Notes under the pieces: model-generated
What the model was told of the DNA's origin: nothing
Databases searched by the model: none
Seen by the model: the letters and a program-made list of their open reading frames with translations, nothing else
In this document: positions 23,603 through 32,000 of the stretch, piece by piece
How the letters are laid out: every line of letters starts with the position of its first letter
How positions within the stretch are numbered: position 1 is the first letter of the stretch
Translations under genes and position numbers: made by a program
NCBI RefSeq assembly: GCF_000007985.2
Contig: NC_002939.5
Location: 360,001 to 392,000 of the forward strand
Length of the DNA stretch: 32,000 nucleotides
Direction of reading: 5' to 3'
DNA from: Geobacter sulfurreducens PCA
Lineage (GTDB): Bacteria; Desulfobacterota; Desulfuromonadia; Geobacterales; Geobacteraceae

Positions 23603-24049
23603 ATGGAACAACAACTTGCCGCTGACGGCCTGATTGTCTTATTTGTGGTGAGTTTCCTTGCAGCCACCCTCATCCCTGTCGGTTCCGAGTGGTTACTGGT
23701 CGCTCTGCTGACCCAGGATTACAACCCGCTGGCTGTTACAACTACGGCAACTGTCGGCAACATTCTCGGCGCTTGCACCACCTGGGCCGTCGGGATGTGG
23801 GGGGGCGTGTATCTGGTACGGCGGATCCTTCGGATATCGGAGGACGCTGAGCGTAGAGCAGAGCAGTTCTATCGTCGGTACGGTTACTGGTCGCTTCTTC
23901 TGTCATGGCTTCCGATACTCGGAGATCCCCTTTGTCTGGTAGGAGGGATATTGAGAGTGGGGTTCGGCCGGTTCGTACTGTTGGTTGGAATCGGAAAACT
24001 CGCACGCTACTCGTTCATTGCTTGGGTGACGGTCCATGCAGTCAACTGA
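23603..24049 (+). CDS. YqaA-like DedA/VTT-family inner membrane protein
   Basis: 148 aa. From memory it aligns with E. coli YqaA throughout: FLAATLIPVGSEWLLVALL, ATVGNILGACTTW, RRYGYWSLLLSWLPILGDPLCLVGG, GKLARY. Confidence 0.7.
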   Translation: MEQQLAADGLIVLFVVSFLAATLIPVGSEWLLVALLTQDYNPLAVTTTATVGNILGACTTWAVGMWGGVYLVRRILRISEDAERRAEQFYRRYGYWSLLLSWLPILGDPLCLVGGILRVGFGRFVLLVGIGKLARYSFIAWVTVHAVN

Positions 24050-25226
24050 AGCTTCAGCCCATCGGGAACTCGAAAACACCATTGTACGCCTGTTGAAGCG
24101 TCGTCCCTTCTATGGTCAATTTCTGTTAGCGATGCGTCGTGAGCAGCGGCCCGGGACTTTTCCCTTGGGGGTAACGTTTCGGGACGGTGTCCCGGTCTTG
24201 ATGGTGAATCCTCACCGGCTCGAAGCCGAGTCTCCTGCAATCAGAGAAGGGTTGCTCGAGCATTGCGTCAGACATGTCATTCACCTACACATGGTGCGAC
24301 GAAAAGGGCGTAACGGCCATGATTGGGATGTGGCCTGCGATTTGGCAATTAACCCGTCCATTGAACATCTGCCCGCCGATGCGCCCCTTCCTGTTCATTT
24401 CTCCGCCGACGATGGTCTGGCTGCCGAAGAGTATTACAGCCTGCTCTCCAACCCGTTCGATGCCGGAAGCTTGGAAGGGCAGGGTACAGGACGAGCAAGT
24501 CGGGACGAAGGCGGTGCAACTGGGGATGGCTGCGACCGGGACCTGAACGTCACTACGGTTGACGACCACAGTGCCTGGGAAGAAGCTGACTCGACTCCGT
24601 TTCGACTCGCTGAGGAGGTGGTGCGCGGCATGGTGCGTGAGGCCTGGCGACAGGCCGATGGCCACGTGCCTGCCGATATCCGCCGTGTTATAGAGGGAAT
24701 GCTTGCACCCTCACCGATTCCGTGGCAGCAGGTCCTGCGGCAGTTCGTTGCGGCTGCTGGACGTACCGGCCGTGAAACGAGTTGGCTGAAAGAGCACCGG
24801 CGCTTCGTTCACATGACGCCTGGTATCCGCAAGCGAAGGCGGTTAAATCTGCTGGTCGGGATCGATGTGAGCGAATCCACCGACACCGTGGAGCTCCGGG
24901 AGGCATTTGCCCGGGAGTTAGTCCGGATATCCCGCGGTCGTGATGCACAGGTAACCGTTCTCTACGCCAACAGCCGGATACAGCAAATGGAGAGCTTCAG
25001 GGGAGCGCTGGGCTTGACTGAGGCTTACTACGGCGGTGGATTCACGGATCTTCGTCCTGTCTTTGAACATGCACGGACAATGATTCCCCGTCCCGCAGCA
25101 GTCATCTACCTGACCGATGGGGTCGGGCCCGCCCCCGAACAGATGGAGTTCCCCACCCTGTGGGTGCTGACGCGGGCAGGGGAGAAACCCGTCCCCTGGG
25201 GGGTGGAATTGAGGCTGGAGGTATGA
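24036..25226 (+). CDS. DUF2201-type protein: N-terminal putative metallopeptidase-like domain plus C-terminal VWA-like domain
   Basis: 396 aa. N-terminus RRPFYGQFLLAMRR, then LLEHCVRHVIHLH and WDVACDLAINP. C-terminal VWA region has the MIDAS-like motif LLVGIDVSESTD (DxSxS, 24864-24878). The ATG overlaps the yqaA-like end by 14 nt. Family assignment is from memory of Pfam DUF2201_N/DUF2201. Confidence 0.6.
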   Translation: MQSTEASAHRELENTIVRLLKRRPFYGQFLLAMRREQRPGTFPLGVTFRDGVPVLMVNPHRLEAESPAIREGLLEHCVRHVIHLHMVRRKGRNGHDWDVACDLAINPSIEHLPADAPLPVHFSADDGLAAEEYYSLLSNPFDAGSLEGQGTGRASRDEGGATGDGCDRDLNVTTVDDHSAWEEADSTPFRLAEEVVRGMVREAWRQADGHVPADIRRVIEGMLAPSPIPWQQVLRQFVAAAGRTGRETSWLKEHRRFVHMTPGIRKRRRLNLLVGIDVSESTDTVELREAFARELVRISRGRDAQVTVLYANSRIQQMESFRGALGLTEAYYGGGFTDLRPVFEHARTMIPRPAAVIYLTDGVGPAPEQMEFPTLWVLTRAGEKPVPWGVELRLEV

Positions 25227-25633
25227 CCATGGGAGAACTGAAACCGATGACCACGGAGTCGGTGAAAGAACTGCTGGAAGAGGCTGGGGCTAAAGCCATG
25301 GCACGCTCGGGGAGAACTGAAAGTTACAGCGCGCCCCGGGACTTTTCCTTCGAGGTCAAGGCCATCTTCCCCAATGGTATGGGACTTCACATCGTTGCGC
25401 GGCAGTTCAACTACCGCGATCCGTGGGAAGCGACAGGGCGAGTCAATGATCTGGTCGACGTTTCATTGCTGCGGGATGGCATCTACACTCCCCTTCCCAA
25501 GGGATACAAATGGTTCCAGGGGCGCGATCTGGAGGAAGGGGTGGATGAGGCACGACTGAGGGAACTCATAGCCTGTGTCCGCGACGTCAATCCGAAGCTT
25601 TATCTGCTCCAGGAATTGACAGGAGACTTGTAG
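25223..25633 (+). CDS. Hypothetical soluble protein (136 aa), translationally coupled to the DUF2201 gene
   Basis: ATGA start/stop overlap at 25223-25226 with GGAGG 3 nt upstream (25216-25220). No TM segment, signal peptide or motif that I recognise. The ORF-track start at 25160 would sit inside the upstream gene. Confidence 0.5.
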   Translation: MTMGELKPMTTESVKELLEEAGAKAMARSGRTESYSAPRDFSFEVKAIFPNGMGLHIVARQFNYRDPWEATGRVNDLVDVSLLRDGIYTPLPKGYKWFQGRDLEEGVDEARLRELIACVRDVNPKLYLLQELTGDL

Positions 25634-25747
25634 TAGTAAGACATTGCCTGTTGACAGAGTCTGAAACCTTGGGTAAAAGATAACCAATTAGGCTGTATGC
25701 ATCCATGGTGTTTCATCGGTTCCAGGGACGGAACCGCCTTTACGACC

Positions 25748-25780
25748 AAGCCGCCTCCAAGCAAATGTAGGCGGCTTTTC
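25748..25780 (+). terminator. Stem-loop with a short T-run in the convergent gap between the 136-aa ORF and the kinase gene
   Basis: AAGCCGCCT (25748-25756) pairs with AGGCGGCTT (25769-25777). The loop is 12 nt. Followed by TT (a T-run of four, counting the stem end). Confidence 0.45.
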
Positions 25781-25785
25781 CGTGT

Positions 25786-27264
25786 CTACGGCACAGTAAA
25801 ATAGAACGTTGCCCCTTCTCCGGCCATGGCGTCCGCCCATATCCTTCCCCCGTGGCGTTCGATGGTACGGCGGACCGTGGCGAGGCCGATGCCGCTTCCT
25901 TCGAACTCGCTGGAATGGAGGCGTTCAAAGGGAGTGAAGAGCCGATGAGCGCGTGACATGTCAAACCCTGCTCCATTGTCGCGGATATAGTAGACCGCTT
26001 CTCCTGTGAGTTCGCACCTCCCGAACTCGATCACGGCGGTTTCTTTGTCTCCAGTATACTTCCAGGCATTACCCACGAGATTTTCGATCACTACCCGCAT
26101 CAACCTCCGGTCACCATTTACTACTACCCCATCGGCAATAGTTGTCTTTACGTTCCGTTCGGGAAAGCGAAACCGGAATTCCTCAATTATCATCGAGGCC
26201 ATATGCGAAAGGTCAACCGGCTCGCGGCGAATCTCTTCCCGCCCGAGGCGGGCGAGGCTGAGCAATGATTCGATGAGTCGGTTCATCCGCTTGCCAGCGG
26301 TCAGAATCCGCTCCACATAGCCCCGCCCCTTATCGTCGAGACGCGAACCGTAGTCGTCCAGCAAGATTTTGCCGAATCCGTATATGGACGTAAGGGGGGT
26401 GCGCAGATCATGGGAGACCGAGTAGTTGAAGGTTTCGAGCTCGCGGTTCACTGCCTCCAACTCTGCGGTACGCTCCGCGACCCGTCGTTCCAGTTCGGTG
26501 TTGGCCAGCCGGGCGTGCTCCTCAGCTCGGCTTCGCTCGGCGATCTCACGCTTGAGTTCACCGTTCACCCGGCTGAAAAAGATGAGAACGGCAGTGGTCA
26601 GAACAAAAAAGAGGGAGTGGATGAGAACGATCTGGACCCGTACCACGGCCAGAGTTCGTCCGAACGGAGCATAGGGGAACGAGACACTGATGCCACCAAG
26701 AATTGAACCGGGGCGGCGGTGTTTCGTCATTTCATGACAGCTGAAGCAGGCTGCATCCGACTTGAGGGGCGTCATGAGTCTGAACATCTTTCCGTTATGG
26801 CCGTGCTCTACAGACCATATTTCGGGCTTTCCTTCCTCAAAGCCGCGCAGTGCCTGCTCTTCCCACTCATCGGGACGGTTCGCCGGATTCACGGGGACAC
26901 TGCTGGTGATGTGGATCGCCACGTCCTGAATTTTACGTAACTCTTCTCCCAGGAGCCGGGTCATGTAGGCGGGGTTGATCTTGGTCAGTTTCAGGCCATC
27001 CGTGGTCTCCACGTCGCGCCTGGGGTCCTTCAGGTAAGGGTTGGGGCGGATCGTATCGGAGACCGGCAGATAGAAGCCGCCATGCTCTGCATTCCACTGC
27101 CGGGTAGCGATGATCGAGCGCAGGATGGAGCGACCCATCTGTGCCGCCAGTTCCTCGTAGTGCTCAGCTGCCAATCGAAGGTTAAACCAGAGGGATAGGC
27201 CCGTCACTACCATGAGGAGGGCGAGAATCAGATAACTGTATGAGACAATGCTGTTGCGATGCAT
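25786..27264 (-). CDS. Sensor histidine kinase with a periplasmic DUF3365/Tll0287-like haem-c-binding domain
   Basis: 492 aa. TM1 YSYLILALLMVVTGLSLWF. Periplasmic domain with RQWNAEHGGFYLP, NPYLKDP, KINPAYMTR and a single CXXCH (CFSCH). TM2 VQIVLIHSLFFVLTTAVLIFF. Coiled coil, H-box SVSHDLRTPL, and HATPase N/G boxes (NAWKY, DNGAGFD, GSGIGLA). Confidence 0.85.
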   Translation of the reverse strand: MHRNSIVSYSYLILALLMVVTGLSLWFNLRLAAEHYEELAAQMGRSILRSIIATRQWNAEHGGFYLPVSDTIRPNPYLKDPRRDVETTDGLKLTKINPAYMTRLLGEELRKIQDVAIHITSSVPVNPANRPDEWEEQALRGFEEGKPEIWSVEHGHNGKMFRLMTPLKSDAACFSCHEMTKHRRPGSILGGISVSFPYAPFGRTLAVVRVQIVLIHSLFFVLTTAVLIFFSRVNGELKREIAERSRAEEHARLANTELERRVAERTAELEAVNRELETFNYSVSHDLRTPLTSIYGFGKILLDDYGSRLDDKGRGYVERILTAGKRMNRLIESLLSLARLGREEIRREPVDLSHMASMIIEEFRFRFPERNVKTTIADGVVVNGDRRLMRVVIENLVGNAWKYTGDKETAVIEFGRCELTGEAVYYIRDNGAGFDMSRAHRLFTPFERLHSSEFEGSGIGLATVRRTIERHGGRIWADAMAGEGATFYFTVP

Positions 27265-27281
27265 GAGACAAATGGCCTGTT

Positions 27282-27327
27282 CCGGCAGAAAGCCCGGACT
27301 GCGGGAGCAGACCGGGCCTTCTGCCGG
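27282..27327 (-). other. Long intercistronic stem-loop between the octahaem cytochrome gene and the kinase gene
   Basis: Plus-strand CCGGCAGAAAGCCCGG (27282-27297) pairs with CCGGGCCTTCTGCCGG (27312-27327). That gives 16 bp with one mismatched position, which is a G-U wobble in the minus-strand mRNA. An inner CTGC/GCAG pairing caps a four-base loop (GGGA on the plus strand, UCCC in the minus-strand mRNA). No U-tract on the coding (minus) strand. Confidence 0.55.
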
Positions 27328-27348
27328 AGGACAACGGGAAGAAAATGG

Positions 27349-28950
27349 TTACTTCTTGGGTTCCATGGCGTCGTTCAGGAGCTTAACCCCTGCCTTGGAT
27401 GCCGCGATGGAGGAGGTCAGGCTGTCGCGGGCCAGTTCGGGATTGTGGAAACCGTCGCTGTTTTCAGCGGTCCAGTACTCCCACAGTACATGGGCTTCCT
27501 CATGCTTCTCCCGTGCCTTGGCCAGGACATCTTCACCGATTCCCATCCGCTTGGCGGCGGCGTAGGTGTCGATCAGTTGGCCGAGCCAGTATTCCGCCTT
27601 GCGCATCTTGCCGCGGATGTAGTTACGGGTTCCCTCGATCTGGTAGGACTTCTGCTCCACGGTGCTCTTGGGATGGCAGCCGAGACAGGCTTCTTTCACA
27701 TGGTGAGCGGGACGAATCACGCCGTGGGATTTAAACATCTTGCCGTCTTTGCCCTTCATGCGCGGCATGTGGCAGTCGGCGCAGCCGACGCCGGCCCGGT
27801 CATGGACACTGCCCGCGTAGGTTTCGGCTTCCGGGTGCTGCAGCTTGACGAGGCGTGCCCCTGTGATCGCGTGCTTGAAATCGTAGAAATCGAGCTTCTT
27901 GTAGTGTGCGAGGAGATCCTTTGCATTTTTGAGGGGGAAGTGGTTGGTGCGCTGGTCGTCGTAGCCCACTTTCTGGCCGTCTGACCACTGGGAGCCCGCG
28001 TTGCAGTTGTACTCAACGTGGCACTGGGCGCACATGAGCCGGGAATCGGTCTTTTCCATGACGCCGATCTTGCGGAAACCGTCGCGGAAAGAGATAACTT
28101 TCAGGTCGGTCTTGCCGTTCTTGGCGAAAATATTGGCGGTCGGGTCCTTCTCAATTGCCTGGATCAGGCCGTCACGCACCACGCGGGGTTGGGTGCCATG
28201 GGGGTCGTGACAGTGGATGCACCCCACCGGATTCTGGGTGTCCTTGGCCACTGCAACGATGTCGGAACTCCGGTCCCACGTGGCCTTGGGGTCCTTGTCC
28301 CCCATAAACTTCCATTTGAGGATGTGATCGGACGTCTTGCACTGGATACAGGTGGGATTTCCCGCCATGGCCGTTTCCGGTAGCTTCTTGCCCGTGTCGG
28401 TCAGGATGTCCCATGCCTTGCCGGTGGCGTCCATTCCCCAGGCGCCCTTCTTGTACTGAAAACGCCCTCCCTGGAAACGGTCGACGATGAATTGGTCAAC
28501 CACCATGAAGGCGTGTCCCCGGGGTTCGTTGTGCTCGAAGGTGAAACCGTGGCCGGCCAGGAGCTTGTCCTGCATGGGGGAGCGCCCGGTGGGAATCCCT
28601 TTCTCCTTGCGCGGTTGGGCGTCGTAGTTGACCGTGAAGAAACTGCTGTATTCATTTTTGTGGCACGAACCGCACTTGGCCGGATCCAGATTGGTGCCCG
28701 GCTTGGTCTCGTAGTTGGCCAGGTGCTCCTTGAGTTTGTCGTGGCAGGAATCGCAGGCAAGACGGGCGTGCTTTGATCCTTCCTTGAGGGCCTTGACCTC
28801 CTCGTGACAGCCGTAGCATGTCTCCCGTCCGTCACCCTTGGCACCCGTGGCAGCAGGCTTGCCCTTTGCCGCCGTGGAGAGTGCCGGGATCGACAGGGCA
28901 ACTGCCGCTCCCGCGGCCACCGCCAGTACAGCCAGTCGTTTCTTCCACAT
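27349..28950 (-). CDS. Octahaem cytochrome c, TvNiR/ONR-type (NrfA-related) putative nitrite/hydroxylamine/sulfite reductase
   Basis: 533 aa with a Sec signal peptide. Seven CXXCH motifs (C45, C66, C93, C244, C307, C390, C422) and one CXXCK (CIQCK, residues 201-205, nt 28336-28350) as the fourth motif. NrfA-like CAQCHVEY followed by N-C (Y314-N-C316, nt 28003-28011). AAAGGAG SD upstream. Confidence 0.8.
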   Translation of the reverse strand: MWKKRLAVLAVAAGAAVALSIPALSTAAKGKPAATGAKGDGRETCYGCHEEVKALKEGSKHARLACDSCHDKLKEHLANYETKPGTNLDPAKCGSCHKNEYSSFFTVNYDAQPRKEKGIPTGRSPMQDKLLAGHGFTFEHNEPRGHAFMVVDQFIVDRFQGGRFQYKKGAWGMDATGKAWDILTDTGKKLPETAMAGNPTCIQCKTSDHILKWKFMGDKDPKATWDRSSDIVAVAKDTQNPVGCIHCHDPHGTQPRVVRDGLIQAIEKDPTANIFAKNGKTDLKVISFRDGFRKIGVMEKTDSRLMCAQCHVEYNCNAGSQWSDGQKVGYDDQRTNHFPLKNAKDLLAHYKKLDFYDFKHAITGARLVKLQHPEAETYAGSVHDRAGVGCADCHMPRMKGKDGKMFKSHGVIRPAHHVKEACLGCHPKSTVEQKSYQIEGTRNYIRGKMRKAEYWLGQLIDTYAAAKRMGIGEDVLAKAREKHEEAHVLWEYWTAENSDGFHNPELARDSLTSSIAASKAGVKLLNDAMEPKK

Positions 28951-28982
28951 ACGTTGATTTCTCCTTTCGTGATAGGTTACGG

Positions 28983-29486
28983 CTAGCCGTTCAACGGCTC
29001 AATACTCATCGCGTTCGGCTTTGCCGGGCAGACATGTCTGCAGCCGCCGCAACCGGTACATTTTCGTTTGCTCACCCGGATGGTTCTGCCGAAGATGAGG
29101 GTGAGCGCTCCCTCGGGACAGCGCTCAATGCAGACGGAACACCCTTCGCGAACCAGGCAGCGGTCACGGATTAACCGGGCTCTGCCGATCACCATGCGTT
29201 CCCCTTCGTTTGGCAGTGTCAGAATGCCCTTGGGGCAAGCCCCGGCGCAGAGGTAGCAAAAGGTGCAGCGCCCCTGGAAAAAGTCGAGGTGCGGTCCCTT
29301 TCGGGCAAAGTCACGCACGATAATTGCTGAGGGACAGGCATCCCGGCAGGCGGTGCAATCGCCGCAGGAGCCAGATGCGGTTTCCTTGAATCGCGGCGGT
29401 CGGCACACGGGGGTAGCCGCGCCGATGTTCCGCGCCGCACTCCAATAACCGGACAAGAATCGGAACAGAAACCAGCGTCCTGCCAT
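28983..29486 (-). CDS. NapF-like ferredoxin with four [4Fe-4S]-type Cys motifs
   Basis: 167 aa. N-terminus GRWF...RPPRF resembles E. coli NapF (GRWRK...RPPW, from memory). Motifs CGDCTACRDACP, CTFCYLCAGACP, CLVREGCSVCIERCP and CTGCGGCRHVCP. Lies 32 nt upstream of the cytochrome gene. Confidence 0.7.
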   Translation of the reverse strand: MAGRWFLFRFLSGYWSAARNIGAATPVCRPPRFKETASGSCGDCTACRDACPSAIIVRDFARKGPHLDFFQGRCTFCYLCAGACPKGILTLPNEGERMVIGRARLIRDRCLVREGCSVCIERCPEGALTLIFGRTIRVSKRKCTGCGGCRHVCPAKPNAMSIEPLNG

Positions 29487-29660
29487 TGCCCCGCCTTTGC
29501 TTATCTGTTAGGCATCTTGCGGTGTCGGAAGTGTCCGGGAATTCTCTCTGCAGAGATGCTGTCTATTAAATTAGCAAACATTCTAGAACATGCAACGCGT
29601 GGAGAGGGATACACTGCTTATGGTCAGCCGTGTGTCCTGAGAAACTGTCTGGCAGGGAAG

Positions 29661-29676
29661 AGCAGGTTGCGTACCA
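29661..29676 (-). promoter_or_regulatory. Candidate sigma-54 (-24/-12) promoter upstream of the NapF-like gene
   Basis: The minus strand reads TGGTACGcaacCTGCT against the consensus TGGCACG-N4-TTGCW. GG-to-GC spacing is the canonical 12 nt. A sigma-54 activator gene lies immediately upstream. Confidence 0.5.
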
Positions 29677-29805
29677 ACCATGGCTCAGAAGTGCAATGTT
29701 GTCTAATTAGCCGTAATTGTTGGTGGTAGGAGATGGCGGCGGCGACGGTTTGCGCTTTAGAATGTGGCGAAGTGTTACTTTGAGGTAACGTATGTGTGGT
29801 GGGCG

Positions 29806-31182
29806 TTACGTGCGCTCCATCTGTTTAAGTTTTTCCCAAAGAGTCTTGCGGGAGATGCCGAGGAGTTTTGCCGCCACCCCCTTGCGGTTGCCGGTTGTCT
29901 GCAGCGCTTCGCGGATGGCCTCCTGTTCGGCGACGGATACCGCCCGGGAGAGGGTTGCCGTCGGTGGCTCCTTGGGGAGAGCGGCACCAGCCGGCGCCGC
30001 AGATGCTCCCGTTACGAAGTAGGGGGCAAGATCGGCCAGGGTGATGGTCTCGCCCATCGACAGGGCCACGCCTCGCTCAATGGCATTCTCCAACTCCCGG
30101 ACGTTCCCCGGATAGTCATAGTCCAGGAGTGCCTTGCGGGCGTCTGGGGCGATGCAATGGACCGGTTTGCGCATCCGCTCTGCGTAGACGGACAGAAAGT
30201 GCTCGGCCAAGGGGAGAATGTCTTCACGGCGCTCCCGGAGCGGCGGCAGATGGATGGGAATGACGTTGAGGCGGTAAAAAAGGTCTTCCCGAAAGGCCCC
30301 GCGCTCGACTTCCCTGCGCAGATCTTTGTTGGTGGCAGCGATGATCCGCACATCAACGGCGATCTCGCGGTTGCCTCCGATCCGCTCCAGGGTCTTTCCC
30401 TGGATTACGCGCAACAGCTTTGCTTGGGCGGCCAGGGGCATCTCGCCGATTTCGTCGAGGAAAATGGTTCCCAGGTGGGCCTGTTCGAATTTCCCCTTGC
30501 GTTCCCGCACCGCCCCCGTGAATGCTCCCCGCTCGTGGCCGAAAAGTTCCGATTCCAGAAGCGTTTCCGGGAGGGCGGCGCAGTTTACCTTGACGAAGGG
30601 ATTCTTGTGGCGCGGGCTCATCTGGTGAATGGCACAGGCCACCAGTTCCTTGCCTGTCCCGCTTTCGCCGGAGATGAGGATGGTGGAATCAAGGGCTGCC
30701 GTAGCCCTGATCATGTGGAACACCGGTTCCATGGCATGACTTTTTCCGATCATTCCGCCGCAGGCGAAGTCGGCGCGTACCTGCTCCCTCAAGGAGTTGT
30801 TTTCCTCCTTGAGGAGCTCTTTCTCGGTGATGTCCCGCGAGATCAGGAGAGTCCCCTCGTAGATCCCGTTCTCGTTTCGGATGGGGTAGTAGCTGTTTTC
30901 GAAGATCTTTTCCCTTACGTGGATCACTCGGGTGGAAAAAGGGATGTCACCCCCCTTGAGCCCGGCGATGAGCCGACGGATGCGCCCTTCGGACGCGGGT
31001 GAGTGAATGGAGACGATGCTCCGCCCCAGATAGTTGCCGGCGATGATTCCGCGGATATCCTCGGCGGCCGCATTGATATAGCGGATTCTGTCGTCTGCGT
31101 CGGCGAAGATGATCCCCTCTCCCATGCTGGCGAGAATTGCCCGAAAAACGGGCAAATGAAGCGGCTGTGGTTCAGTGCGCAC
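29806..31182 (-). CDS. Sigma-54-dependent transcriptional activator (PAS sensor domain, AAA+ domain, Fis-type HTH; no receiver domain)
   Basis: 458 aa. PAS-like N-terminus (FRAILASMGEGIIFADADDRIRYINAAAEDI ... YEGTLLISRDITEKE). Walker A GESGTGKE. GAFTGA loop (ERGAFTGA). ESELFGHE. C-terminal HTH AAKLLGISRKTLWEKLK. GTG start with GGGAGGA SD. Confidence 0.9.
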   Translation of the reverse strand: MRTEPQPLHLPVFRAILASMGEGIIFADADDRIRYINAAAEDIRGIIAGNYLGRSIVSIHSPASEGRIRRLIAGLKGGDIPFSTRVIHVREKIFENSYYPIRNENGIYEGTLLISRDITEKELLKEENNSLREQVRADFACGGMIGKSHAMEPVFHMIRATAALDSTILISGESGTGKELVACAIHQMSPRHKNPFVKVNCAALPETLLESELFGHERGAFTGAVRERKGKFEQAHLGTIFLDEIGEMPLAAQAKLLRVIQGKTLERIGGNREIAVDVRIIAATNKDLRREVERGAFREDLFYRLNVIPIHLPPLRERREDILPLAEHFLSVYAERMRKPVHCIAPDARKALLDYDYPGNVRELENAIERGVALSMGETITLADLAPYFVTGASAAPAGAALPKEPPTATLSRAVSVAEQEAIREALQTTGNRKGVAAKLLGISRKTLWEKLKQMERT

Positions 31183-31285
31183 GGTAAGTCCTCCCGAATG
31201 TTACTTGATCGTAACACGGCAACGATTTCGACTCCACTATTTTCCCGTGATTAGGGACGAGAAAGTCGCGGCAGCCGCCTGTCGG

Positions 31286-31313
31286 TTGACATTGACCCCT
31301 CGTGGCGTATAAT
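31286..31313 (+). promoter_or_regulatory. Near-consensus sigma-70 promoter (TTGACA-16-TATAAT) for the OmpA-like gene
   Basis: TTGACA 31286-31291 and TATAAT 31308-31313, both 6/6. The spacer is 16 nt. Lies about 128 nt upstream of the ATG at 31442. Confidence 0.6.
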
Positions 31314-31441
31314 TGTGCCCAATCAATGAACAGTAGTCACATCACCATGTCATGAGCAGCGACTGTACGGTTCAGGGCTGTGTCGTTCCGACGCGGGCAG
31401 TGAGCCGTCACGCAGCATCTACTACTCAAAGGAGGTCATCA

Positions 31442-32000
31442 ATGAAGCAACGAATCGTGCCCGGACTGCTTGCCTTGGCCGCGATAGCCGTCACGGCCGC
31501 GCCAACACTCGCCGAAAACAGGAGCGGAGCAGGGTACATCTCTCCCTTTGTGGGCGGCTACACGTTTGACGGCGCACAACACCTGAAAACCCGTCCGACT
31601 TTCGGCCTGAGAGGCGGCTACAACCTGGACAAGAACTGGGCCGCTGAACTGCTCTTCGGGTATGTCCCCACCAAGCAGAGCAGGGGGCAGGGAAATGACG
31701 CGGATGCTTACCGTTACGGTCTCGACGTCCTCTATAACTTCATGCCCGACAGCGCTCTGGTGCCGTTCCTCGCCGTAGGCGGCGGCGCATCCACCATCGA
31801 TCACTCCGAAGGGGTGAGCGACGAGCACGAGCAGTATGTGAACTACGGTGGCGGCCTCAAATACTTCCTGACCGATAATTTCGCACTTCGTGGCGACGTG
31901 CGGCACATCTACATGCTCGGCCCCGAAAACCACAATTTTGAGTACACGGTGGGACTCAACTACCTCTTTGGCGGTGAGCGCCCCGCGCCGGCCAAGGTTG
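31442..32000 (+). CDS. Outer-membrane beta-barrel protein, OmpA-like N-terminal domain (gene runs off the window end)
   Basis: Missing from the ORF track because it has no stop in the window. Manual translation: MKQRIVPGLLALAAIAVTAAPTLAENRSGAGYISPFVGGYTFDG...FGLRGGYNLDKNWAAELLFGY...YRYGLDVLYNF...VPFLAVGGG...YGGGLKYFLTDNFALRGDVRHIY...YTVGLNYLFGG. This is a signal peptide plus alternating aromatic beta-strand pattern. AAAGGAGG SD lies 6 nt upstream. Confidence 0.7.
   Translation, partial: MKQRIVPGLLALAAIAVTAAPTLAENRSGAGYISPFVGGYTFDGAQHLKTRPTFGLRGGYNLDKNWAAELLFGYVPTKQSRGQGNDADAYRYGLDVLYNFMPDSALVPFLAVGGGASTIDHSEGVSDEHEQYVNYGGGLKYFLTDNFALRGDVRHIYMLGPENHNFEYTVGLNYLFGGERPAPAKV

Follow-up and report, generated by a model that had tools for sequence, protein, structure and literature searches.

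A sigma-54-linked ferredoxin and octahaem nitrite reductase operon in Geobacter sulfurreducens, most likely a nap-less remnant of the Trichlorobacter Nap-octahaem ammonification module

The window analysed here is a stretch of 32,000 nucleotides of the Geobacter sulfurreducens PCA genome (contig NC_002939.5, positions 360,001 to 392,000). Within it we investigated the locus GSU0356 to GSU0359, whose four genes are all already annotated; gene lengths and promoter coordinates match GSU0357, GSU0358 and promoter 48 of this strain exactly. As the initial annotation had described, the four genes lie together on the minus strand, and domain and motif searches on all four proteins agreed with the identities it had assigned. 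The genes and associated features, with the basis of each assignment in brackets, are the following.

25786-27264, minus strand: GSU0356, an orphan sensor histidine kinase with a Tll0287-like haem-c domain, a neighbour of the operon (Pfam, topology)
27281-27328, minus strand: terminator-like hairpin between the cytochrome and kinase genes, a GC-rich stem followed by UUUCU (folding energy)
27349-28950, minus strand: GSU0357, octahaem cytochrome c nitrite reductase of the TvNiR type, predicted to be Sec-exported (haem motifs, similarity to homologues of solved structure)
28983-29486, minus strand: GSU0358, NapF-like 4x[4Fe-4S] ferredoxin, predicted to be cytoplasmic, first gene of the operon (Cys motifs, NCBIfam, synteny)
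29661-29677, minus strand: sigma-54 (-24/-12) promoter TTGGTACGCAACCTGCT of the ferredoxin-cytochrome operon (10 of 12 consensus positions match)
29774-29809, minus strand: candidate activator-binding site GTAAC-N15-GTTAC-N6-GTAAC (first half-site overlaps the GSU0359 stop codon)
29806-31182, minus strand: GSU0359, PAS-AAA+-HTH sigma-54 enhancer-binding protein, proposed activator of the downstream operon (Pfam, motifs, orthologues)

The partners that might be expected beside such genes, and that had been listed as missing, are indeed absent: none of the genes in the 32 kb window encodes NrfH, NrfBCD, CymA, NapA or a response regulator, and no REC-domain protein was found either in the window or within 10 kb past its high-coordinate end. 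The remaining genes of the window are the nuo operon, ATP synthase a and I subunits, proteases, Tpx, DedA and a DUF2201 protein. Assemblies of the G. sulfurreducens type contain the exact activator protein, with a c7-cytochrome pair flanking.

GSU0357 begins with a signal-like hydrophobic segment and matches Cytochrom_C552 (PF02335, E 1e-62). Its eight haem motifs start at residues 45, 66, 93, 201, 244, 307, 390 and 422; the fourth, CIQCK, is the CXXCK of the catalytic haem, as in the TvNiR/TaNiR type. The similarity to solved enzymes of this type extends over the full length, with 69% identity to PDB 8rv0 (deposited as 'octaheme nitrite reductase') and an E value of 1e-163 against Thioalkalivibrio TvNiR. 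The enzyme of Thioalkalivibrio nitratireducens (PDB 2ot4 and others) likewise has eight haems, CXXCK at haem 4 and the same domain order, and its catalytic Arg, Tyr-x-Cys pair and His align with those of GSU0357 (motifs EPRGHAF, CHVEYNCN and LQHPEAET), although it is less identical to GSU0357 than 8rv0 is, judged by bit scores of 548 versus 794. With the pentahaem NrfHA and NrfABCD systems GSU0357 shares a homologous core of five haems, which includes the active-site haem with CXXCK; it matches PF02335, and NCBIfam NrfA models match with scores below cut-off. GSU0357 differs from them in its three extra N-terminal haems and in having no NrfH, NrfB, NrfC or NrfD gene nearby. A separate NrfA/NrfH pair has been reported elsewhere in G. 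sulfurreducens (GSU3154, GSU3155).

The initial annotation held the physiological substrate of such octahaem enzymes in metal reducers to be unresolved. According to two papers citing Sorokin et al. 2023, a close homologue from T. ammonificans was purified and is an ammonifying nitrite reductase, and one citing paper states the in vivo function as proven; the question is therefore less open than the initial annotation held. By analogy, GSU0357, once exported, would form ammonium in the periplasm from nitrite and probably also from NO and hydroxylamine. Electrons might enter from the general periplasmic cytochrome pool through the N-terminal c7-like trihaem domain, an entry that would take the place of a dedicated NrfH- or CymA-type partner.

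Could GSU0357 instead have been redirected to sulfite, to hydroxylamine or NO only, or to pure electron storage, with no part in nitrite ammonification? Reports say that G. sulfurreducens has no nitrate reductase and does not respire nitrate and that NrfA-family enzymes take NO, hydroxylamine and sulfite as substrates, and proteomics detected GSU0357 in Fe(III)-citrate cultures, the passages on which mention no added nitrite. However, the active site retains all the residues of a nitrite reductase, the nearest homologues with a known function form ammonium from nitrite, and the same regulator and promoter architecture is found on nap-containing clusters of relatives, so that we consider a redirection extremely improbable. 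The proteomic detection, together with the entry of 1.24 that Leang et al. 2009 give for GSU0357 in their RpoN transcriptome table, was all that our literature search returned on expression or biochemistry of this locus.

GSU0357 is preceded, across a 32-nt gap with a GGAG ribosome-binding site, by the ferredoxin gene. GSU0358 contains four CX2-5CX2CX3CP motifs and lacks both a hydrophobic segment and a twin-arginine (RR) motif, consistent with a cytoplasmic four-cluster protein. Its start differs among annotations, one caller giving 111 aa; the first cluster motif and the RPPRF motif common to orthologues are part of the 167-aa form. The best NCBIfam match is NapF (TIGR00402), with model positions 4-145 of 149 aligned. 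Because the score of 61.9 bits lies below the curated cut-off of 102.2, we call the protein NapF-like and not a certified NapF. Like GSU0358, the NapF proteins of E. coli, Rhodobacter sphaeroides and Wolinella succinogenes are cytoplasmic in character and have four [4Fe-4S] Cys motifs, an RPP(W/RF) motif and, near the N-terminus, a degenerate Tat-like motif; we used the E. coli NapF sequence and the Wolinella nap gene order for comparison, and the latter matches the position of the NapF-like gene after napB. In contrast to NapF, GSU0358 has no NapA to serve, there being no nap gene in the window. Orthologues do occur in nap operons, in G. pickeringii, FeAm09 and 24 other loci. Most Geobacterales relatives of GSU0358 are shortened two-cluster forms with an SRKDFFK motif.

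Pfam assigned PAS_4/PAS_10, Sigma54_activat (E 9e-74), AAA_lid_14 and HTH_8 domains to GSU0359, with Walker A at residue 172 and GAFTGA at residue 219, and detected no receiver (REC) domain. Thus the kinase cannot phosphorylate GSU0359 in the ordinary way, a point that the initial annotation had made. NrfR, the sigma-54 activator of nrf in Desulfovibrio vulgaris, does carry a receiver domain. The NrfS-NrfR system of that related lineage, listed in a review table as a two-component pair, also places a sigma-54 activator over a nitrite reductase operon; its activator should therefore be kinase-driven, whereas GSU0359 has a PAS input.

The proposed sigma-54 link is supported by the -24/-12 element, by its published prediction and by its conserved position beside an orthologous activator. 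The supplement of Leang et al. 2009 gives the same site as RpoN 'Promoter 48' (389663-389679, PromScan score 84) and assigns it to GSU0358-GSU0357, the only two genes in the operon predicted there. Equivalent elements matching 9-11 of 12 positions lie 110-140 nt past the activator stop codon in all nine activator-bearing loci examined. The pattern GTAAC-N15-GTTAC-N6-GTAAC occurs once in the window, versus 0.07 expected. Across 2.75 Mb of loci, counting both strands, it was found 13 times, in seven cases no more than 6 nt from the stop codon of an orthologous activator gene. All nine loci examined combine an activator orthologue, a -24/-12 element and, at the activator stop codon, a half-site element; seven have the three-half-site pattern and two (L064 and L073) a variant arrangement. 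Where the activator is missing, neither element was found in L086 or L090, and L087 has no half-site element and a weak -24/-12 match (9/12). At the level of sequence, the locus combines a GAFTGA AAA+ protein with a C-terminal HTH, a -24/-12 promoter and a candidate site upstream of it. The comparison suggests that GSU0359 recognises the GTAAC/GTTAC half-sites at the stop codon of its own gene and opens the promoter about 120 nt downstream.

We compared 75 informative Geobacterales loci carrying the octahaem cytochrome. A NapF-like ferredoxin gene lies directly upstream of the cytochrome gene in 40, and in 24 of these 40 it is itself preceded by napD-A-(G-H)-B; the ferredoxin is present in every nap-adjacent locus (24/24). 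NCBIfam confirmed NapA (1057 bits), NapG and NapH in the loci of relatives. The other 16 ferredoxin-cytochrome loci have no adjacent nap genes, six following nar genes and ten neither nap nor nar. In about nine genomes the first gene of the cluster encodes a PAS activator: GSU0359 orthologues with 56-59% identity stand before nap-ferredoxin-cytochrome clusters in L004, L016, L044, L073 and L076 and before the ferredoxin-cytochrome pair in L029, and the same domain architecture heads the nap cluster in L088. At the syntenic position in G. pickeringii, beside the same OmpA-like and DUF2201 flanking genes, the order is napD-A-B-ferredoxin-cytochrome, and the gene between napB and the cytochrome gene encodes a protein 55% identical to GSU0358. 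FeAm09 has the order activator, napD-A-B, ferredoxin, cytochrome. Loci linked to nap appear in all major branches of a rough neighbour-joining tree of the cytochrome.

Although the pairing of ferredoxin and cytochrome had been thought not to be described, it is published in T. lovleyi, where a PAS sigma-54 regulator of the GSU0359 architecture (Glov_1054) is followed by napDAGHB, Glov_1060 ('NapF?') and the octahaem nitrite reductase Glov_1061. The best KEGG match of Glov_1060 is GSU0358, and expression of nap and of the nitrite reductase gene in T. lovleyi increases by about 5.6 log2 units in nitrate ammonification. This Trichlorobacter module (T. ammonificans, T. lovleyi; Sorokin et al. 2023; Glov_1054-1061) and the window have three things in common: orthologous octahaem nitrite reductases, the NapF-like gene immediately before the reductase gene, and a PAS sigma-54 regulator at the head. 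Unlike the module, which has NapA, NapB and NapD, with or without NapGH, just upstream, the window has no napD, napA, napG, napH or napB, and the ferredoxin gene directly follows the activator gene. No nap remnant was detectable in the 319-nt activator-ferredoxin spacer or in the 165-nt leader. Because the nap genes are missing, the sigma-54 promoter here would drive only the ferredoxin and the nitrite reductase. A NapGH quinol dehydrogenase route to the octahaem nitrite reductase has reportedly been proposed for Trichlorobacter; such a route cannot apply to the window.

The window most likely holds a nap-less remnant of this published ammonification module. The ancestral module would have comprised the activator, napD-A-(G-H)-B, the NapF-like gene and the octahaem nitrite reductase gene; in G. 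sulfurreducens the nap genes would have disappeared, leaving regulator and promoter, the final gene of the nap operon and the nitrite reductase. The direction of evolution, loss and not gain of nap, is argued from parsimony and the neighbour-joining tree. We therefore think it probable that GSU0358-GSU0357 is a sigma-54 operon, driven by GSU0359, that represents the reduced form of a Geobacterales nap/octahaem module, with the kinase as a lineage-specific neighbour. The partners that seemed to be missing would then reflect gene loss and not a new pathway. The pairing of a cytoplasmic with an exported protein, which the initial annotation found topologically puzzling, would have a simple origin, the ferredoxin gene being the last nap-operon gene that happened to precede the cytochrome gene.

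Retention of the ferredoxin gene in the 16 loci without adjacent nap genes, and the restriction of GSU0358 differences among G. sulfurreducens-type strains to synonymous ones, are not what one expects of a pure relic. Both observations would also suit a ferredoxin that is a dedicated partner of the nitrite reductase, either as a redox- or NO-sensing Fe-S protein that modulates the PAS activator or as a protein required to make the haem enzyme. The gene just before that of the ferredoxin often encodes the PAS activator or a small FixL-like PAS protein, and a supplementary table of the T. lovleyi paper places a 4Fe-4S ferredoxin, Glov_0210, before the pentahaem NrfA-2 within a nar cluster; a second supplementary table, however, calls Glov_0210 a molybdopterin molybdotransferase. 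The strain comparison involves only 2-4 substitutions, the closest curated family is NapF, and the ferredoxin is present at every nap-adjacent locus, as a nap gene would be. It is missing from 35 of the 75 Geobacterales cytochrome loci and from all four gammaproteobacterial loci sampled, where no activator or kinase gene was found either; in these TvNiR-type loci, unlike the window, FccAB-like genes precede the cytochrome gene and the haem-lyase genes for CcmF, CcmH and CcmI follow it. We found no precedent in the literature for such a role of a ferredoxin, and we judge a dedicated partnership unlikely. A related idea is that the NapF-like polyferredoxin was co-opted as a cytoplasmic Fe-S sensor or co-regulator that acts with PAS proteins and gates sigma-54 expression of periplasmic nitrite reductases; the PAS partners would be the activator in the window and the small FixL-like proteins in relatives. 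This would explain why the ferredoxin gene stays beside the nitrite reductase gene after loss of nap or its replacement by nar, but we consider it quite improbable.

Returning to the nap-less remnant, we asked whether the kinase belongs to it. GSU0356 consists of a Tll0287-like haem-c sensor domain, HisKA and HATPase (Pfam). Its single CFSCH, at residue 173, lies between hydrophobic segments 4-33 and 203-233, which places the sensor domain in the periplasm, and no cognate response regulator lies nearby. The hairpin between the cytochrome and kinase genes has a folding energy of -48.8 kcal/mol (z-score -5.9; 0/200 shuffles fold as well), and its structure is kept, with a different sequence, in L085 and L048; its imperfect U-tract kept it from being picked up by a simple terminator scan. 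Transcripts from the sigma-54 promoter would end mostly at this hairpin, as its conservation suggests.

It has been suggested that all four genes form one module, and in one version this would serve sensing and detoxification, with the haem-c kinase detecting periplasmic NO, nitrite or redox state and controlling the operon either by way of a response regulator encoded elsewhere or by some unconventional signal to the PAS activator. Kinase and cytochrome both have a periplasmic c-type haem, and the kinase start codon comes just 16 nt after the hairpin, so that read-through may express the kinase and tie it to the operon. However, besides G. sulfurreducens itself the two genes adjoin only in its close relatives L048 (71% identity) and L085, and not at the other 79 genome loci. 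Conserved linkage, then, holds for activator, ferredoxin and cytochrome, and fails for the kinase. Moreover, the activator lacks a REC domain, the published operon prediction stops at GSU0357, and the kinase differs between strains by 26 synonymous and 20 non-synonymous codon changes, versus no non-synonymous change in the other three genes. We strongly doubt the single sensing and detoxification module. Limited adjacency, the conserved hairpin and the different substitution pattern together indicate that the kinase is probably not part of the core unit; it may signal to some regulator elsewhere. GSU0356 has been listed as cobalt-induced, in a paper whose main text does not include GSU0357.

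The initial annotation had described four minus-strand genes as one sigma-54-linked redox module with missing partners. All four open reading frames are real and lie where they had been placed:

25786-27264, minus strand: GSU0356, the kinase, with a Tll0287-like domain, HisKA and HATPase
27349-28950, minus strand: GSU0357, the cytochrome (Pfam Cytochrom_C552), with eight haem motifs (CIQCK at haem 4) and an N-terminus that resembles a signal
28983-29486, minus strand: GSU0358, the ferredoxin, with four [4Fe-4S] motifs and no export signal
29806-31182, minus strand: GSU0359, the activator, with PAS, AAA+ (containing GAFTGA) and HTH domains

The cytochrome is 69% identical to PDB 8rv0, an entry named 'octaheme nitrite reductase', and it matches TvNiR, the Thioalkalivibrio octahaem nitrite reductase, with an E value of 1e-163; the active-site Arg, Tyr-x-Cys pair and His all align. 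For the ferredoxin the top curated family is NapF, at 61.9 bits, short of the 102.2-bit cut-off. The E. coli NapF row of our ferredoxin alignment is illustrative only. Because the one CFSCH motif of the kinase lies between two hydrophobic segments, its haem domain is predicted to be periplasmic. As had been proposed, a domain search with the activator yielded PAS in place of a receiver domain, and the window encodes neither an Nrf partner nor NapA nor a response regulator; the 10 kb past its high-coordinate end likewise encode none of them. The exact activator protein is present in G. sulfurreducens-type assemblies, where the locus is flanked on one side by a c7 cytochrome gene pair and an OmpA-like gene and on the other by the nuo operon. 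As a whole, the observation in the initial annotation was confirmed, and its interpretation was supported in part.

A genome scan gave 80 Geobacterales loci with a cytochrome 68-78% identical to that of the window, and their neighbourhoods were compared by tblastn and ORF clustering; identity to PDB 8rv0 was at most 76% in all 80. Seventy-five loci, the window included, were informative, with 700 nt or more of sequence 5' of the cytochrome gene. A NapF-like ferredoxin gene lies immediately 5' of the cytochrome gene in 40 of the 75, preceded in 24 by napD-A-(G-H)-B, in 6 by narGHJI and narK, and in 10, among them the window and L029, by neither; it is present in every nap-adjacent locus. In the NCBIfam search NapA scored 1057 bits, NapG and NapH were over their cut-offs, and NapD and NapB matched weakly. 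Orthologues of the PAS activator, 56-59% identical along their whole length, stand at the cluster head in L004, L016, L044, L073 and L076; one is present in part at a contig edge in L064, and L029 and Geobacter sp. FeAm09 (L088) also have an orthologue at the head of the cluster. The T. lovleyi cluster is headed by Glov_1054, a PAS activator by its annotation. Thus, of the conserved linkage suggested for the four genes, the ferredoxin and activator parts hold and the kinase part does not: outside G. sulfurreducens, only L048 (71% identity) and L085 (a 96%-identical relative) have the kinase gene next to that of the cytochrome. Ferredoxin, activator and kinase are all absent from the four gammaproteobacterial TvNiR-type loci (L091-L094).

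A -24/-12 element was found at 29661-29677 independently of Leang et al. (2009). The entries for this locus in the supplement of that study place GSU0357 at 387351-388952, the end of GSU0358 at 389488, and RpoN 'promoter 48', TTGGTACGCAACCTGCT, at 389663-389679; the operon predicted there comprises GSU0358-GSU0357 only. With 360002 subtracted, these coordinates coincide exactly with those of the cytochrome gene, the start of the ferredoxin gene and the -24/-12 element. Therefore, the genes are GSU0356 to GSU0359, the element is promoter 48, and the sigma-54 link, which the initial annotation had also drawn, was predicted already in 2009.

When loci were scored against the sigma-54 consensus TGGCACG-N4-TTGCW (12 positions), a 9-11/12 match was present 110-140 nt past the activator stop codon in all nine activator-bearing loci. 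A three-site GT(A/T)AC pattern, which in the window reads GTAAC-N15-GTTAC-N6-GTAAC (29774-29809, minus strand), overlaps or directly follows the activator stop codon in seven of the nine; in L064 and L073 the half-sites are in a variant arrangement. In 2.75 Mb of sequence this pattern was counted 13 times, 7 of them at the activator stop-codon position; the window has it once, vs 0.07 expected. Two of the three activator-less loci lack both the half-site element and the promoter; in the third, that of G. pickeringii (L087), there is no half-site element and the promoter match is weak (9/12). This comparative evidence argues strongly that the activator would drive the downstream operon, and we infer that it binds the GTAAC/GTTAC half-sites. 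The PAS-type sigma-54 activator of the GSU0359/Glov_1054 family, the conserved candidate site and the -24/-12 promoter would then constitute a candidate regulon. During nitrate ammonification by T. lovleyi, its genes for Nap, the NapF-like protein and the nitrite reductase go up by ~5.6 log2, and the signal for the activator system is therefore likely to be nitrate, nitrite or a derived signal. No discussion of this activator was found in the literature searched.

We also considered whether the activator PAS is a fused copy of a small FixL-like PAS protein, and rejected this, as the only similarity is weak and covers 42 residues. Stand-alone PAS proteins of 145-190 aa, similar to the haem PAS domains of FixL and DosP, are encoded directly upstream of the ferredoxin in the nar-linked loci L019, L025, L034, L043, L068 and L074, and in L019 a 10/12 sigma-54 element lies just 5' of this gene. 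An Rfam search of 25000-32000 (E <= 1) gave a sole, chance-level match, on the hairpin described below, and no known riboswitch or leader RNA in the 165-nt leader. Divergent from the activator gene, an OmpA/OprF-like gene starts near 31442 (plus strand) and runs past the window end; ahead of it, at 31286-31313 (plus strand), is a perfect sigma-70 consensus, TTGACA-16 nt-TATAAT.

The initial annotation had noted that the NapF-like gene has no napA and the NrfA-type enzyme no quinol dehydrogenase, an apparent paradox. Both absences are probably explained by reduction of a known nitrate-ammonification module. In G. pickeringii, napD, napA, napB, ferredoxin and cytochrome genes adjoin the same OmpA-like and DUF2201 genes, and the ferredoxin there, 55% identical to that of the window, likewise has four clusters and the RPPRF motif. 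The complete series of activator, napD-A-B, ferredoxin and cytochrome gene is present in FeAm09, and nap-linked loci occur across all major branches of a rough, neighbour-joining cytochrome tree. G. sulfurreducens is reported to have no nitrate reductase and no nitrate respiration. The simplest reading is that the lineage of G. sulfurreducens lost its nap genes, so fusing the promoter to the ferredoxin-nitrite reductase pair. Searches of the 319-nt activator-ferredoxin spacer against G. pickeringii and FeAm09 (blastx and blastn-short) gave no traces of napD, napA or napB; the sole match was the shared half-site region, so the deletion junction cannot be located.

The locus is a nap-less variant, in a model organism, of a published module, with a sigma-54 promoter already predicted; new here are the conserved candidate site for activator binding, the joint occurrence of activator and promoter, and the explanation by gene loss. 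It is a warning that gene loss can pass for a new pathway. The module carrying this regulon is currently regarded as important to how Geobacterales retain nitrogen. G. sulfurreducens, which naturally lacks nap and is amenable to genetics, offers a convenient system in which to ask how the ferredoxin functions without NapA and which periplasmic carriers feed the octahaem enzyme.

In 16 of 40 loci the ferredoxin gene persists with no nap genes beside it, and its strain differences are all synonymous, with only 2-4 substitutions to compare. According to one supplementary table of the T. lovleyi paper, a 4Fe-4S ferredoxin gene, Glov_0210, precedes that of the pentahaem NrfA-2 in a nar cluster; a second table annotates Glov_0210 differently. 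Given the nap-less retention, the synonymous changes and the Glov_0210 listing, the ferredoxin may have a role tied to the nitrite reductase. Electrons would reach the cytochrome from the periplasmic c7 cytochrome pool, via its N-terminal trihaem domain. Elsewhere, among short two-cluster ferredoxins encoded 5' of the cytochrome gene (L008, L016, L029, L035, L046, L049, L059, L061 and others), many share a Tat-signal-like N-terminus, M-x-(I/L)-S-R-K-(D/E)-F-F, and a C-terminal tail ending P-x-K-G-E-(S/T)-x-C; shorter relatives end before the tail.

Between the cytochrome and kinase genes, folding revealed a hairpin at 27281-27328 (17+4 bp, -48.8 kcal/mol, z -5.9) that a simple terminator scan of the minus strand, which found nothing, had missed. 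The structure is kept with different sequence in L085 and L048, and a U-rich stretch follows. Since the kinase gene starts only 16 nt beyond the hairpin, it may be expressed at a low level by read-through. Compared with the G. sulfurreducens-type loci L082 and L083, 26 codons of the kinase gene differ synonymously and 20 non-synonymously, the first of the latter being codon 159; between strains, the activator, ferredoxin and cytochrome genes have no non-synonymous changes. This pattern suggests a recombination tract or relaxed constraint in the kinase gene. GSU0356 has been reported as cobalt-induced, in a paper whose main text makes no mention of GSU0357.

A DUF2201 (metallopeptidase/VWA-like) gene at 24036-25226 (plus strand) is followed by a small conserved protein gene at 25160-25633 (plus strand), with no Pfam family (134-136 aa by gene callers; longest ORF 157 aa). 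Although there are local inversions, the pair stays with the cytochrome locus in G. sulfurreducens, in G. pickeringii and in L048. In FeAm09 the orthologous activator (L088:2679-4048) is called as two genes, of 419 aa and a 37-aa HTH, which may reflect a frameshift or assembly error. FeAm09 also has a ResB/CcsA-type (system II) gene pair for cytochrome c biogenesis (L088:14027-16260), about 4.4 kb downstream of its nitrite reductase gene; this pair has no counterpart in the window and might encode a lyase dedicated to the CXXCK haem. In L091-L094, genes for CcmF, thioredoxin, CcmH and CcmI downstream of the nitrite reductase gene look like an NrfEFG-like lyase set for that haem, and in three of these four loci flavocytochrome c sulfide dehydrogenase genes lie upstream, which hints at sulfide oxidation coupled to nitrite reduction.
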